Assembly (NCBI RefSeq): GCF_018343615.1
Contig: NZ_JAGYPI010000002.1
Location: 57,562-81,561 of the forward strand
Direction: 5' to 3'
Source: Bacillus sp. FJAT-49736
Lineage (GTDB): Bacteria > Bacillota > Bacilli > Bacillales > Bacillaceae_C
Length of the DNA: 24,000 bases
Below the pieces are notes generated by a model, which was not told the DNA's origin, did no database searches, and saw only the letters and a program-made list of their open reading frames with translations. Position 1 is the first letter of the stretch, and each line of letters starts with the position of its first letter. A program made the translations under genes and the position numbers. Shown piece after piece: positions 9,559-12,969 of the stretch.

Positions 9559-10191
9559 TTAGAAAAAGGCTGTGAATGCAATGATTAAAATAATCACTCC
9601 ACTTACAATTGCTCCAAATTGGCCCACTGTAAAGGAACCAATCCGAATATCTGCCACTCTGCTTCCTAGCTTCACCCCTGCCCAAACACTTAAAAAGCTT
9701 CCTATTGCCGCAGTTATGGAAATAGCTAAAGGGGACAAACCAAGCAATCCTGCACCCAGGCCATTCGTGAGGGCATTGGCGGAAAGTGCTACTCCAAGAA
9801 AAGAAGCTTCTATCCAATTAATTTCTCCAGAATGGTCCATATCAGCAACCTCTGGATTTTTTAGAATACCCTTCAGACTCTTAGACTGTCTTTCTTGCAT
9901 TTTGTCTGTTTGAGAGGCACCATTTCTCCGTGGAACGGCTAATAAAATAATCCTTATACCGATGATAAACAAGAGAACTGCTCCAATGACTACTGGAAAC
10001 ACTCCTGGAATCACTTTCGATAGCCACATTCCAAATGTAATGCCTCCCATACTCAAGAGGAAACAAATGAGAGAAATCAGCGTATTTGCCCACAGCCCTA
10101 TTCGTATTTTCCGAATACCGTATGAAATTCCGACACCTAAATTATCTATACTTGATGAAGCCGCAAAGGCTAATATCATAATCCAAATCAA
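9559..10191 (-). CDS. ytaF: Sporulation membrane protein YtaF (MntP/DUF204-like)
   Basis: Likely starts at TTG (complement of 10189-10191) after AAGGAG. Gives MIWIMILAFAASSSIDNLGVGISYGIRKIRI...ADMDHSGEINWIEASFLGVALSANALTNGLGAGLLG. The track ORF extends to 10248 without an SD. Confidence 0.85.
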   Translation of the reverse strand: MIWIMILAFAASSSIDNLGVGISYGIRKIRIGLWANTLISLICFLLSMGGITFGMWLSKVIPGVFPVVIGAVLLFIIGIRIILLAVPRRNGASQTDKMQERQSKSLKGILKNPEVADMDHSGEINWIEASFLGVALSANALTNGLGAGLLGLSPLAISITAAIGSFLSVWAGVKLGSRVADIRIGSFTVGQFGAIVSGVIILIIAFTAFF

Positions 10192-10313
10192 TGTAGAACA
10201 CTCCTTCATTTTTTTACATTGTATTGAGCAAATTGACAGAAAGTGCACGTCTATCCCAATAATGTTGAGAAAATCTCAACACCTTTTAAATAATTACAAA
10301 GGAGTGATTCCAT

Positions 10314-10973
10314 ATGACCGAAAAAAGAAAAGGTGAGAATCAATTTGGAAAGTTATTGAAGGATTTACTAAAGGAGTGCTCTCTTTCTATGAGGAAACTC
10401 AGTCAGCTTACTGGGATCGATACAGCGACTATTTCACGGATTGCTAACCAAAAACAACAGCCCAAGCCTACACATTTACAGCAATTCGCCTTTCATCTAC
10501 AAGTACCGTTATCTACACTTATGAATGCGGCAGGGTACAGTCAAGATCAGCTTGAAGACAGGCAATCCGATTTATTTCGTTCGCTTGAATCGATTCAAGA
10601 TATACTCGTTTCATCCGATTTATTGGAACACCAGTTTACTATAGAAAAAATACATCAGGAATTGGCAAAATATGAGCATTACGCTCTTACTTCCGAAGGA
10701 AAGTCAACGATACTGAAGGAATTCGAACAAAAAGTAGAACAGGTTAAAGGTGCAGGACCTTTTATTGATGAACTGAAGGTTATGTACAAGAACTATTGTG
10801 CTGATACACAATCCATTGAAAGAAGGAGAATTCTTGGGAGTGTTCTATTATATTTTATTCTATCAACGGATATTATACCTGATTATGTGTTTCCATTTGG
10901 ATATGTAGATGATTGTCTAGCGGTTCAAATAGGCTTGGAGAGACTTTCAAAACTAGAGGGAAATAATGTATAA
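10314..10973 (+). CDS. XRE-family HTH protein with C-terminal DUF1232 (YkvA-like) domain, paralogue 2
   Basis: 219 aa. LSMRKLSQLTGIDTATISRIANQKQQPKPTHLQQFAFHLQV...YFILSTDIIPDYVFPFGYVDDCLAVQI, co-linear with 8612..9259. Confidence 0.85.
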   Translation: MTEKRKGENQFGKLLKDLLKECSLSMRKLSQLTGIDTATISRIANQKQQPKPTHLQQFAFHLQVPLSTLMNAAGYSQDQLEDRQSDLFRSLESIQDILVSSDLLEHQFTIEKIHQELAKYEHYALTSEGKSTILKEFEQKVEQVKGAGPFIDELKVMYKNYCADTQSIERRRILGSVLLYFILSTDIIPDYVFPFGYVDDCLAVQIGLERLSKLEGNNV

Positions 10974-11029: not shown

Positions 11030-12373
11030 TTATATATGAAGCAATATTTTGGCCAAGGAAAAGTACAGAATGAGACCTGTTCCATCGACTAAAGTAGTAA
11101 TGAATGGCCCAGAAACGACAGCCGGGTCAATTTTTAATTTGTGCAAAATCATCGGTAGTACAGCCGCAACCATTGATGCCCAGATGACGATGAATAGTGC
11201 TGATATGGCGACAACAGAGCTGATATGAATACTAACCCCAAGGAAAAAGGCACGAATAATTGCAACAATTCCCATTGATATCCCTAAGAAAACACCTGTA
11301 GATACTTCCTTTCGAAATACTCTAAACATGTCCTTGAACTGCACTTCACCGACAGCCAATGCCCGAACTAACGTGGTAACGGTTTGAGATCCTGTATTCC
11401 CACCTGTTCCTATTAGTAATGGTACAAAAAAAGACAATGCAATTTGCTTTGAAAGCGTGTCTTCATAATGTCTTAATACTGTTCCTGTATAAGCTTCTGC
11501 TATAAACAATACTAATAACCAGCCAATTCTTTTTCTATATAGATTCCAAATAGAATTTTTAAAATACGGCTCATCTAGCGGCTGACTTCCTCCTAGCTTT
11601 TGAAAATCCTCCGTTGCCTCCTCATGAATAACATCAATAAGATCATCTACCGTAAGTATTCCAATCATCCTTTGATCTTGTGTTATAACCGGAATAGCTA
11701 CAAGATCGTATTTACTCAGAACCTCTGCCGCTTCCTGCTGATCGGCATGAACCAAAACGGAAATAGTATCACCTTGAATTATTTCTTCTAATCTTGTACC
11801 CGATTTTGCTAAAATGATTTCTTTTAAGGAAACGACTCCAACTAGTTCACCGCGGCTCCCCAGTACATATATATAAGAAACAATTTCAGCCTCCTTGCCC
11901 ACCTTTCTTATATGCTGTAATGTTTGATCAACCGTCCAATTAATTCGGGCAGCAATATAATCTACGGTTGCAAGTCTCCCTGCCGTATTTGATTCATAGC
12001 TCATTAGTATATTTATTTTTGCCCGATAATCATCAGGCAAAAAGTCCATTAATCTCTTAGCCTGATGTGGATGAATGGATAAAAGCAAATTTACGATAGT
12101 ATCACTAGACATTTCATTTAATAATGAGGAAGTGAAATTATCCTTAATATGATGTAAGACCTTATATTGCAGTTCCGGTTCTATATATTCAAGGATTTCA
12201 GCACCTAATTGAATTGGCAATAAGGAAATAAATAATAATTGCTCTTCTTTTTCTAACTCAACCAACATCTCTGCAATATCGAAAGGTTGAAAATGGGATA
12301 CGAAATCATTTATCTGATCCAGATTCTGTTCATTTAGAAGTTGTTTGATTTCTTGAATGTTGTTTTGTTCCAT
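11030..12373 (-). CDS. mgtE: Magnesium transporter MgtE
   Basis: 447 aa. Superhelical N domain (HPHQAKRLMDFLPDDYRAKI), two CBS motifs, C-terminal TM domain PLLIGTGGNTGSQTVTTLVRALAVGEV. Confidence 0.97.
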   Translation of the reverse strand: MEQNNIQEIKQLLNEQNLDQINDFVSHFQPFDIAEMLVELEKEEQLLFISLLPIQLGAEILEYIEPELQYKVLHHIKDNFTSSLLNEMSSDTIVNLLLSIHPHQAKRLMDFLPDDYRAKINILMSYESNTAGRLATVDYIAARINWTVDQTLQHIRKVGKEAEIVSYIYVLGSRGELVGVVSLKEIILAKSGTRLEEIIQGDTISVLVHADQQEAAEVLSKYDLVAIPVITQDQRMIGILTVDDLIDVIHEEATEDFQKLGGSQPLDEPYFKNSIWNLYRKRIGWLLVLFIAEAYTGTVLRHYEDTLSKQIALSFFVPLLIGTGGNTGSQTVTTLVRALAVGEVQFKDMFRVFRKEVSTGVFLGISMGIVAIIRAFFLGVSIHISSVVAISALFIVIWASMVAAVLPMILHKLKIDPAVVSGPFITTLVDGTGLILYFSLAKILLHI

Positions 12374-12383
12374 GACCTTTCCT

Positions 12384-12456
12384 CCTTATGATGCAAGGAA
12401 TAAGGGGTTCTGCAAGCCGTTAGACAAAGACTGATACAACTTTCTTATTCCTGCAT
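12384..12456 (-). promoter_or_regulatory. Putative alternative-helix translational switch at the mgtE ribosome binding site
   Basis: Helix A pairs RNA AUGCAGGAAUAAG (12456-12444) with CUUAUUCCUUGCAU (12404-12391), with one bulge. Helix B pairs CCUUAU (12405-12400) with AUAAGG (12389-12384), masking the SD. They share the CUUAU segment and cannot coexist. Confidence 0.45.
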
Positions 12457-12499
12457 AGTTTGTTTCATAAACATATTTTGTACTCGGGTCCTCGTCCAT
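12386..12499 (-). CDS. Small leader ORF (37 aa) immediately upstream of mgtE
   Basis: ATG preceded by GGAGGTG with good spacing. MDEDPSTKYVYETNYAGIRKLYQSLSNGLQNPLFLAS*. The stop (TAA) abuts the mgtE SD (TAAGGAGGAAAGGTCATGG). Not in the supplied ORF track. Confidence 0.6.
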   Translation of the reverse strand: MDEDPSTKYVYETNYAGIRKLYQSLSNGLQNPLFLAS

Positions 12500-12606
12500 C
12501 GACGTCACCTCCAGATTACGGAATATACATTCGTTATAAAACATCTAAACTAGTAGTACTCTATGTTGAAAGTTGGTTCATTCCTGTACAAAAGACCATA
12601 CTAAAC

Positions 12607-12650
12607 AAAAAAAATAGCCTTTATTTCTCAGACATAAGGAAATAAAGGCT
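12607..12650 (-). terminator. Riboswitch-linked Rho-independent terminator
   Basis: Perfect 12-bp stem AGCCTTTATTTC / GAAATAAAGGCT with an 11-nt loop. On the minus strand it is followed by A then TTTTTTTT. Located between the M-box aptamer and mgtE. Confidence 0.9.
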
Positions 12651-12708
12651 TTGTTCGTAAAACTATTAACCATGACAGACTGCACAAGAAATCAGCTTTA
12701 ACTAGCAC

Positions 12709-12880
12709 ACTCTGTTTCCCTCGCTTGAGCTTTAGCACTGTATAGCATAGGTAAACAATACCAGCTACATTAAGAAAGACCTTATTCCGATCCTTCCTGT
12801 TGACCCATTGGCGTCTCTCGACATTTTTGGGCAGCAGCATATCTCTATACAGGAGCCTCACCTAACAGAATACATAGAGT
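12709..12880 (-). ncRNA. M-box (ykoK leader) magnesium riboswitch aptamer
   Basis: Minus strand reads ...GTTAGGTGAGGCTCCTGTATAGAGATATGCTGCTGCCCAAAAATGTCGAGAGACGCCAATGGGTCAACAGGAAGGATCGG...ACCTATGCTATACAGTGCTAAAGCTC..., the conserved M-box core. Outer ACTCT/AGAGT can close P1. Confidence 0.93.
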
Positions 12881-12969
12881 AATATTAAACTATTTATAAT
12901 ATATTTTTATTTTGACAAATTGTCAACGAAATATAGAGGAGTTAACTGTGTTTTTTAGCTTATAAATAT

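Follow-up and report, generated by a model that had tools for sequence, protein, structure and literature searches.

A conserved leader open reading frame and a candidate three-helix RNA switch between the M-box riboswitch and mgtE in Bacillaceae

Introduction

What does a short open reading frame (ORF) do when it lies between a Mg2+-sensing riboswitch and the Mg2+ channel gene downstream of it? The question is raised by a 24,000-nucleotide (nt) stretch of the genome of Bacillus sp. FJAT-49736 (contig NZ_JAGYPI010000002.1, positions 57,562 to 81,561; the window, below), in which a full M-box riboswitch and its terminator precede mgtE, a gene of the same family as that behind the M-box of the Bacillus subtilis ykoK/mgtE leader (RF00380). 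The studies of B. subtilis mgtE that we consulted describe its leader purely in terms of an M-box attenuator. A first-pass annotation of the window, made from the sequence alone, had placed a 37-codon ORF between the M-box terminator and mgtE. It had proposed that two helices compete inside the ORF for control of the Shine–Dalgarno (SD) sequence of mgtE and that ribosomes fail early on the acidic, proline-containing N terminus of the encoded peptide when Mg2+ is low.

We compared the region, all of whose features lie on the minus strand of the window, with the leaders of related mgtE loci. The best reading of the comparison, to which we give slightly better than even chances, is that a cis-acting leader ORF is embedded in a three-helix RNA switch that controls the translation of mgtE below the transcriptional M-box riboswitch. 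The switch is a module separate from the M-box and lies 3' of its terminator.

Results

Conservation of the Leader ORF

Loci carrying mgtE were collected by a scan of species-representative genomes with MgtE and by exact-protein look-ups of MgtE homologs, and one metagenome contig was added. A metagenome search with the pattern of the M-box terminator hairpin gave 65 matches, mostly unrelated palindromic hairpins, of which one (L024) carries the module. The 13 core leaders are those of the window, two Heyndrickxia (L001 and L002), Bacillus sp. MUM 116 (L003), the two copies in Peribacillus loiseleuriae (L005 and L016), two uncultured bacteria (L015 and L017), Psychrobacillus (L018), a Schinkia-like bacterium (L019), Lederbergia (L022), Siminovitchia (L089), and the metagenome contig L024. 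Most counts given below cover 12 leaders, L024 having been joined separately as the 13th.

The first-pass annotation was right about a well-initiated 37-codon ORF between the M-box terminator and mgtE, and the check that it proposed, a comparison of relatives, found the ORF conserved. Wherever an M-box stands directly upstream of mgtE in this MgtE clade, which is the case for 14 leaders, a short ORF with its own SD is present, and its product starts MD, ME, or (V)E. Its SD reads GGAGGUGA in 12 of the 13 core leaders and GGGGGUGA in L022, the spacer between SD and start is 8–9 nt in all 13, and the start codon is AUG except for a GUG in L089. We take the conserved SD consensus GGAGGUGAU (GGAGGUGAC in the window) to match the 3' end of 16S rRNA. 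The motif spanning SD and start occurs once in the window, against 0.00 occurrences expected, and its SD lies ~95 nt downstream of the M-box terminator and the run of eight U that ends it. The SD is kept in the window even though the UCACU with which it usually pairs is missing there, which argues that it is retained for ribosome binding.

Across the first 29 codons, the frame of the ORF contains no stop in the 12 leaders, whereas frames +1 and +2 contain 22 and 33, respectively. After shuffling of codons 7–29, the probability of a stop-free frame was 0.12–0.27 per sequence; the product of these values, 2e-10, overstates independence, and counting six independent lineages gives ~1e-5. Two alternative starts were considered and rejected. 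A 52-amino-acid (aa) version beginning at ATG 12544 has no SD and is not conserved, only ATG 12499 being preceded by an SD, and an in-frame AUG found 6 nt upstream in many relatives is separated by just 2 nt from the core of the SD and, in the case of L018, is directly followed by UAG.

The end of the ORF behaves differently from its beginning. In the window, the stop codon TAA (12388–12386) overlaps the mgtE SD (UAAGGAGG), so the abutment of the two that had been described is correct there, but it does not hold as a general feature. Elsewhere the stop moves relative to the mgtE AUG, over a range that begins 54 nt ahead of it and ends 47 nt past it. It falls at CAC-UGA after 29 codons, at CUA-UAG after 30–35 codons, just 5' of the mgtE SD as in the window, or beyond the mgtE AUG as in L001 and L002, for a total length of 29–59 codons among the relatives. 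In the second P. loiseleuriae copy (L016, 1369–1503), the ORF (MEEEPSLAEI...) is stop-free and continues in frame into the mgtE ATG; unless this is a sequencing error, the MgtE of that copy is predicted to carry an N-terminal extension. The gene callers had annotated only 52- and 59-aa versions of the ORF, as hypothetical proteins, in two Heyndrickxia genomes.

The peptide shows no conservation after residue 8. The MgtE proteins of the window and L001 are 90% identical, yet their leader peptides cannot be aligned past the N terminus, and a test for a peptide conserved along its length in one frame, as expected of a small protein, failed. The leaders share a nucleotide block (CUUCGUCUAUCGAUUCACUGAAAA) that lies in one or the other of two reading frames, depending on the relative, and is therefore conserved as RNA. 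An unconserved peptide of varying length, with a shared block in two frames, is the sequence pattern that fits a cis-acting leader ORF and not a functional small protein, and we regard a translated cis-regulatory leader ORF as highly probable.

The Acidic and Proline-Containing N Terminus

The part of the peptide that is conserved is the acidic and proline run to which the first-pass annotation had drawn attention. The consensus in the 12 leaders is M-[DE]-[DEG]-[DEG]-[PS]-[SGD], to which L024 (MDEGPN) adds N at position 6. Asp or Glu occupies 30 of the 36 residues at positions 2–4, and residues 2–7 include two to five D, E, or P per leader, the remainder being mostly G, S, T, or A. The nucleotides vary as in a coding sequence: the entropy at the first, second, and third positions of codons 2–6 is 0.36, 0.53, and 1.41 bits (permutation p = 0.0024; 12 leaders), Asp and Glu substitute freely for each other, and proline is encoded by each of its four codons (CCG, CCA, CCC, and CCU).

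Intrinsic destabilization of ribosomes requires D, E, or P directly after the initial Met, with small neighboring residues favoring and bulky ones opposing it (bioRxiv 10.1101/2021.02.02.429294). A pause motif that depends on EttA, NKDEPD, contains DEPD (PMC11282234); DEPD occurs verbatim in L022 and the similar EEPD in L019. By analogy, the acidic N terminus may act as a Mg2+-dependent ribosome pause or destabilizer, a role that we hold tentatively and at just under even chances.

Helix A and P2 Compete for One Anti-SD

Helix A, drawn earlier as 13 base pairs (bp) with one bulge, exists as drawn: 12456–12444 and 12404–12391 form 13 canonical pairs and leave a single U bulged out. In the window, it reaches −12.5 kcal/mol as a closed hairpin and −16.4 kcal/mol as a duplex (z = −4.0; none of 300 shuffles was as good). 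The second helix of the earlier drawing, helix B, does form six canonical pairs over the mgtE SD (12405–12400:12389–12384), but it is a weaker register of the anti-SD, at −3.8 kcal/mol. A better register, 12405–12394:12388–12376 (CCUU/AAGG plus UUCCUUG/UAAGGAG), reaches −9.4 kcal/mol and masks the SD more fully. Below, P2 denotes the helix between the anti-SD and the mgtE SD and includes helix B.

Both helices recur among the relatives. The mgtE SD is paired with a pyrimidine-rich anti-SD in 12 of 12 leaders (P2; −8.6 to −15.8 kcal/mol), and P2 is part of most unconstrained minimum-energy folds, though not those of L002 or L005. A purine-rich 5' arm of helix A lies inside the ORF, at codons ~9–23, in every leader, and its sequence differs by lineage, as in the arm pairs AUGCAGGAAUAAG/CUUAUUCCUUGCAU, GGAAAGGAAU/AUUCCUUUCC, and UGAGGGUAA/UUACCCUCA. 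Helix A has energies of −13.4 to −23.6 kcal/mol and is stronger than P2 in all 12 leaders; the two overlap on the anti-SD by 13 nt in the window and by 6–21 nt in the relatives. Because helix A cannot be aligned across genera, column statistics were replaced by a comparison of its duplex energy with shuffles, species by species: the helix beats the shuffles at ≤0.05 in 8 of the 12 leaders (nominal Fisher combined p = 2e-10). An outer pair of the helix, A–U in the window, is G–C in L001 and L024. The competition of two helices for one anti-SD, as described in the first pass, is thus present in every relative examined, and control of mgtE through this competition at its SD is probable.

A Third Helix over the Start of the Leader ORF

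The idea of a switch built from two helices was not borne out: there are three helices, and the one that had been overlooked, P1, closes over the start of the leader ORF itself. Its 3' strand is a conserved pyrimidine block ~60–70 nt downstream of the leader start, and the pairings in the minimum-energy layout that the leaders share are GGA/UCC, GGUGA/UCACU, and GAUGGACGAAGG/CUUCGUCUAUC. The P1 duplex of the window (12515–12487:12432–12408) has an energy of −25.2 kcal/mol, which makes it the most stable element of the switch. An unbiased duplex search of positions −16 to +17 of the leader ORF against everything downstream recovered P1 in 11 of the 12 leaders, at −23.8 to −37.7 kcal/mol; the result was at ≤0.04 of shuffles in 10 of the 12 (nominal Fisher combined p = 1e-11). 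On a MAFFT alignment, 86.6% of the P1 cells are paired, compared with 34–56% when the partner is slid. The support for P1 comes mostly from conserved complementarity of its strands, and the clearest compensatory changes are two: A–U to C–G in L015, and AUG to GUG accompanied by U to C in L089. In the H. sporothermodurans leader (L002, 2380–2500), the sequence before mgtE (AAUGAAGAUGAAUGGAGGAA) resembles the leader start region (GUGAUGAAGAUGGAGGAAGG), and the 3' block of P1 could, by eye, pair with either.

Helix A links the loop of P1 to sequence 3' of P1 with just 4–10 nt between them, a pseudoknot geometry in which the two helices can hardly coexist. When the leader initiation region was blocked in the model, the minimum-energy fold flipped to helix A in 9 of 12 leaders. 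Partition-function models with a ribosome footprint at the leader start or stop moved in the expected direction, too weakly and heterogeneously to give the sign of regulation; the modeling supports the mutual exclusivity of P1 and helix A, not the output of the switch. The comparison of leaders shows conservation of the ORF, its SD, its start codon, and its N-terminal motif, together with three complementarities.

Locus Layout and Variants among Relatives

The features of the window are listed in Table 1. The promoter-like site (12926–12898) lies ~20 nt 5' of the M-box and, going by this position, is the candidate promoter of the leader transcript. A second promoter-like site within the leader (12549–12522 on the minus strand; TTTAGA, 16-nt spacer, TATATT; 9 of 12 consensus matches) was rejected: such sites occur at chance-level frequency, and this one is not kept in L001. 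The terminator hairpin has the same sequence in L001–L003, L005, L015, and L017–L019; a simple terminator scan overlooked it because its stem is AT-rich. A search of 12340–12720 against Rfam returned noise only, even at E ≤ 10, and no family matching the segment with the leader ORF and switch. On the 3' side of mgtE, whose ATG is at 12373, the window carries an MntP-like membrane protein gene (9559–10248, minus strand) and an HTH/DUF1232-like gene (10314–10973, plus strand). These were named by resemblance to the neighbors of mgtE in relatives: genes with the Pfam domains Mntp and HTH_3 plus DUF1232 flank it in L015 and L021, and an HTH_3/DUF1232 gene is also found in L022.

Table 1. Coordinates of the mgtE leader and its elements in the window
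Feature	Position	Strand	Description
Promoter-like site, leader transcript	12898–12926	−	TTGACA, 17-nt spacer, TATATT; 11 of 12 consensus matches
M-box (Mg2+) riboswitch aptamer	12709–12876	−	RF00380, 152.9 bits (gathering score 44); full-length match 1–169
M-box intrinsic terminator	12607–12650 (approximate)	−	Hairpin AGCCUUUAUUUC...GAGAAAUAAAGGCU followed by U8; seen in the fold
P1 5' strand	12487–12515	−	Part of leader SD, AUG, codons 2–4
Leader ORF SD GGAGGUGA	12505–12512	−	8 nt 5' of AUG
Leader ORF	12386–12499	−	37 codons plus stop, MDEDPSTKYVYETNYAGIRKLYQSLSNGLQNPLFLAS; ATG 12499–12497, TAA 12388–12386
Codons 2–6 (DEDPS)	12482–12496	−	Conserved acidic/proline/small-residue motif; consensus in relatives
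Helix A 5' arm (AUGCAGGAAUAAG), anti-anti-SD	12444–12456	−	Leader codons 15–19; 13 canonical pairs
P1 3' strand (AGUCUUUGUCUAACGGCUUGCAGAA)	12408–12432	−	Core GUCUUUGUCUA pairs with UGGACGAGGAC
Anti-SD (CUUAUUCCUUGCAU)	12391–12404	−	Helix A 3' arm; alternatively P2 5' arm
mgtE SD region (UAAGGAGGAAAGG)	12376–12388	−	P2 3' arm; SD AAGGAGG at 12387–12381
mgtE, Mg2+ channel	11030–12373	−	447 aa; 100% identical to the "magnesium transporter" of Bacillus sp. FJAT-49736; Pfam MgtE_N, CBS, MgtE

The arrangement of the locus varies around the module. In L019 and L024, the leader ORF switch and the terminator hairpin are kept and the M-box aptamer is absent, and the retention of the module without the aptamer suggests that it has a function of its own and works independently of the M-box. 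In the metagenome contig (L024, 2480–3040), a promoter is directly followed by the terminator hairpin and a ~200-nt insertion lies ahead of the leader ORF, whereas in L019 (1260–1500) the module sits after an FtsW-like gene. L019 is the exception among loci with an FtsW/RodA-like gene between M-box and mgtE, at which the leader ORF is absent. In six loci from Neobacillus and relatives (L004, L006, L007, L009, L010, and L013), the M-box, at ~1017–1183, is followed by a gene of the FtsW/RodA/SpoVE family and by mgtE at 2501, with no leader ORF; there, a cell-wall polymerase-like gene would be under the control of a Mg2+ riboswitch.

More distant mgtE leaders, with 65–70% MgtE identity, also have a short ORF in addition to the M-box and terminator; its product starts MDSSPSS in L021 (130–407), MDSYRSS in L090 (1100–1500), and MDSSSS in L088 (100–264). 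L021 and L090 have a second intrinsic terminator ahead of mgtE and may represent a transcription-attenuation version of the same idea. Two further matches were observed in the collected loci: a second, weaker M-box in P. loiseleuriae (L005, 420–585; 58.4 bits), ~1.4 kb upstream of the main one, and, where the Brevibacillus massiliensis locus ends (L012, 6274–6326), a truncated match to the Bacillaceae-1 small RNA family (RF01690, 40.6 bits).

Discussion

A Proposed Mechanism and What Weighs against It

We infer that the leader ORF is translated, that a ribosome held at its start opens rather than closes mgtE, and that the effect depends on Mg2+. In the proposed mechanism, five segments would be read from 5' to 3': (a) the leader SD, AUG, and codons 2–4; (b) the purine-rich anti-anti-SD, within codons ~13–21; (c) the pyrimidine-rich block; (d) the anti-SD; and (e) the mgtE SD. 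The possible pairings are a:c (P1), b:d (helix A), and d:e (P2). Without a ribosome, P1 and P2 together would be most stable and both initiation regions would be closed. A ribosome on segment a would prevent P1; helix A, being stronger than P2 in every species, should then capture the anti-SD and free the mgtE SD, leaving both initiation regions open. A ribosome elongating through segment b would melt helix A, upon which P2, and then P1, would re-form. At low Mg2+, a longer dwell at codons 2–6 would mean less traffic over the 5' arm of helix A and hold the switch open; at adequate Mg2+, smooth elongation would melt helix A and the mgtE SD would be masked again. Production of MgtE would then require low Mg2+ to be reported twice, by the M-box as the RNA sensor and by the ribosome. 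The model expects a frame that stays open across the 5' arm of helix A and the 3' strand of P1; an early stop would make the switch constitutive.

Several observations weigh against this reading. The covariation of P1 is weak: its score of 0.238, compared with 0.213 for shuffled data, was reached by 38 of 500 shuffles, barely above them because both strands are conserved. The combined p-values for P1 and helix A overstate independence, the leaders being phylogenetically related sequences. With the leader start blocked, the mgtE SD becomes more accessible in the models of 8 of 12 leaders, and modestly so, constrained minimum-energy folds leave the SD largely masked in several, including L001, L015, L017, and L089, and in L017 and L018 helix A leaves a second, inner anti-SD in place. 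The N terminus is not uniformly acidic either: L015 (MADGPG) and L002 (MEEGSS) have just two D, E, or P each at positions 2–7, the related variants L021, L088, and L090 begin with the barely acidic MDSS or MDSY, and some of the nucleotide conservation at the N terminus could serve P1 pairing.

The sequence of events is also exposed to objection. In the first-pass model, ribosomes fail early, helix A forms, the SD is freed, and MgtE rises. Its direction matches the logic established by experiment for the enterobacterial leaders MgtQ and MgtL, but abortion alone would be insufficient: abortion followed by release should restore P1 and P2, the off state, so occupancy of the 5' end more likely matters than abortion. 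In most species, moreover, a terminating ribosome would stand on or near the anti-SD, and full translation could open the mgtE SD, giving the opposite sign of control.

Comparison with Known Systems

A close parallel is MgtQ, an 8-codon ORF before mgtB in the Salmonella mgtCBRU operon (Choi et al., mBio 2021, PMC8092293). There, a ribosome on region 1 allows a stem 2:3 to sequester the anti-RBS (RBS, ribosome-binding site) and to free the mgtB RBS, and the effect requires Asp2 and Glu5, whose codons destabilize the ribosome (PMC8092293). As in MgtQ, a short ORF lies directly 5' of a Mg2+ importer gene whose RBS is held in an inhibitory stem-loop (here P2), a mutually exclusive stem overlapping the ORF sequesters the anti-RBS (here helix A), and Asp or Glu codons stand at the start of the ORF, where in MgtQ they are necessary for the effect. 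The two are nevertheless unrelated in sequence, and they differ in the length of the ORF (29–59 codons against 8), in the transporter (the MgtE channel against a P-type ATPase), and in the host (Bacillaceae against Enterobacteria). The module here lies downstream of an M-box riboswitch and MgtQ between two genes, and the additional helix P1 sequesters the SD and AUG of the leader itself.

MgtL, which is mgtA's leader peptide in Escherichia coli and Salmonella, begins MEPDPT, and its translation is aborted in the first six residues, an effect that is greater at low Mg2+ (bioRxiv 10.1101/2021.02.02.429294). The resemblance to MgtL that had been pointed out holds for the acidic and proline residues directly after Met (MEPDP there, MDEDP here), but there is no homology beyond this compositional likeness over five residues. 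Both systems have alternative RNA structures overlapping a short leader ORF and a Mg2+ importer gene downstream, and the ribosome, the Mg2+ sensor in MgtL, is proposed to be one here. The output differs: Rho-dependent transcription termination for MgtL, a helix masking the mgtE SD here. A terminator scan, which did not cover Rho sites, found none between the leader ORF and mgtE in the window, and none follows the ORF in the core group. MgtL also works together with PhoPQ and the mgtA leader RNA and has no M-box.

A third parallel is the pe20 M-box of Mycobacterium tuberculosis, which is associated with the upstream ORFs uORF1 and uORF2 and with a platform of anti-anti-SD, anti-SD, and SD (D'Halluin et al., RNA 2026, PMC12810186). 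It shares with the leaders studied here an M-box followed by short upstream ORFs and a three-part masking of the SD with an SD-like anti-anti-SD. In pe20, however, it is the aptamer that drives the translational platform, transcription is ended by Rho, uORF2 is a conserved peptide that has a trans homolog, an acidic N terminus is absent, and the genes controlled are pe/ppe genes, not mgtE. In Gram-positive translational attenuation leaders of the ermC and cat type, a ribosome held early in the leader ORF re-pairs downstream segments and exposes an SD. Stalling there is caused by antibiotics through specific nascent peptides, as opposed to the Mg2+ channel gene and acidic/proline motif here. 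A full-text literature search, with many subscription papers outside its coverage, turned up no account of an mgtE leader peptide in Bacillaceae. The switch most likely works like MgtQ and MgtL, but it is a member of neither family: homology is lacking, and transporter class and phylum differ.

Alternative Explanations

Other accounts of the conserved ORF and helices survive to differing degrees. Plain positive translational coupling, in which ribosomes reaching the end of the ORF unwind P2 and the acidic N terminus is no sensor, is unlikely though not far-fetched. It would suit the position of the stop codon, which in 9 of 12 leaders is inside the anti-SD or past it and, in the other three (CAC-UGA), is 5–10 nt short of it and within the footprint of a ribosome, as well as the overlap of the ORF with the mgtE start in L001 and L002, the fusion in L016, and the slight rise in SD accessibility with a modeled terminating ribosome. 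The variable distance between this stop and the mgtE AUG (−54 to +47 nt), however, means that close-range reinitiation is not conserved, and coupling explains neither the acidic and proline residues at the N terminus nor helix A, found in 12 of 12 leaders with different sequences and stronger than P2 in each. If the N terminus destabilizes ribosomes at low Mg2+, coupling would moreover lower MgtE just when it is needed.

In an mRNA stabilizer, as exemplified by the stalled ribosome of the ermC leader or by STAB-SD elements in Bacillus, a strong SD and a slow ribosome parked at the start of the ORF would keep RNase J1 from degrading the mgtE message in the 5'-to-3' direction. The near-complete complementarity of the leader SD to the 3' end of 16S rRNA, its place directly after the terminator U-tract in several species, and the likeness of the N terminus to known pause motifs would all be in keeping with such a role. 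A stabilizer needs neither 29 or more open codons nor a competition between helix A and P2 at the mgtE SD, though, and P1 would defeat a constitutive one by sequestering the SD. We consider stabilization improbable as the explanation of the module; it is compatible with the switch and possible as an added role.

Slightly less probable still is an element made of RNA only. On this view, the ORF is incidental, the SD-like sequence serves just as an anti-anti-SD, and the helices make up a second structured sensor that responds to Mg2+, to temperature, or to a protein. Both P1 and helix A are indeed conserved structures, block c is read in two frames, and the M. tuberculosis M-box offers a precedent for an SD-like anti-anti-SD facing an anti-SD and SD (PMC12810186). 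An incidental ORF is hard to reconcile with the contrast of 0 stops with 22 and 33 across the three frames, with the third-position variation, the Asp/Glu exchange, and the use of four proline codons in codons 2–6, and with a start that stays AUG or GUG at 8–9 nt from the SD. The SD is also kept in the window despite the missing UCACU, and no Rfam family matches the segment at E ≤ 10. That the ORF encodes a small protein acting in trans, for example on MgtE, is very improbable: the annotated 52- and 59-aa Heyndrickxia proteins and the small regulatory peptides MgtR and MgtU of Salmonella Mg2+ operons would speak for it, but nothing is conserved past residue 8, the length ranges over 29–59 codons with an in-frame fusion in L016, two frames cover the same conserved nucleotides, and the leader peptides of the window and L001 cannot be aligned past the N terminus where their MgtE proteins are 90% identical.

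Implications for Mg2+ Homeostasis in Bacillaceae

The favored reading, a cis-acting leader ORF within a three-helix switch, leads to a broader idea that we find possible but would put somewhat short of probable. Bacillaceae may have independently evolved a ribosome-based Mg2+ sensor for MgtE, in which an acidic/proline leader peptide within the switch forms a two-sensor AND gate with the M-box, the RNA sensing Mg2+ for transcription and the ribosome for translation. The module would be autonomous, and in its sister variant in L021 and L090 a similar ORF would be coupled to a second intrinsic terminator in place of an SD mask. Mg2+ sensing through ribosome destabilization on acidic leader peptides has so far been documented just for P-type ATPase importers of Enterobacteria, MgtL and MgtQ. 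If the idea is true, a nonhomologous counterpart before MgtE in Gram-positive bacilli would make the principle general and show that it arose more than once, and the analysis draws attention to regulatory ORFs of a kind that gene callers overlook and leave unannotated. The textbook M-box/mgtE system would then not always be a single-layer attenuator, a riboswitch and a leader peptide being stacked in this clade.

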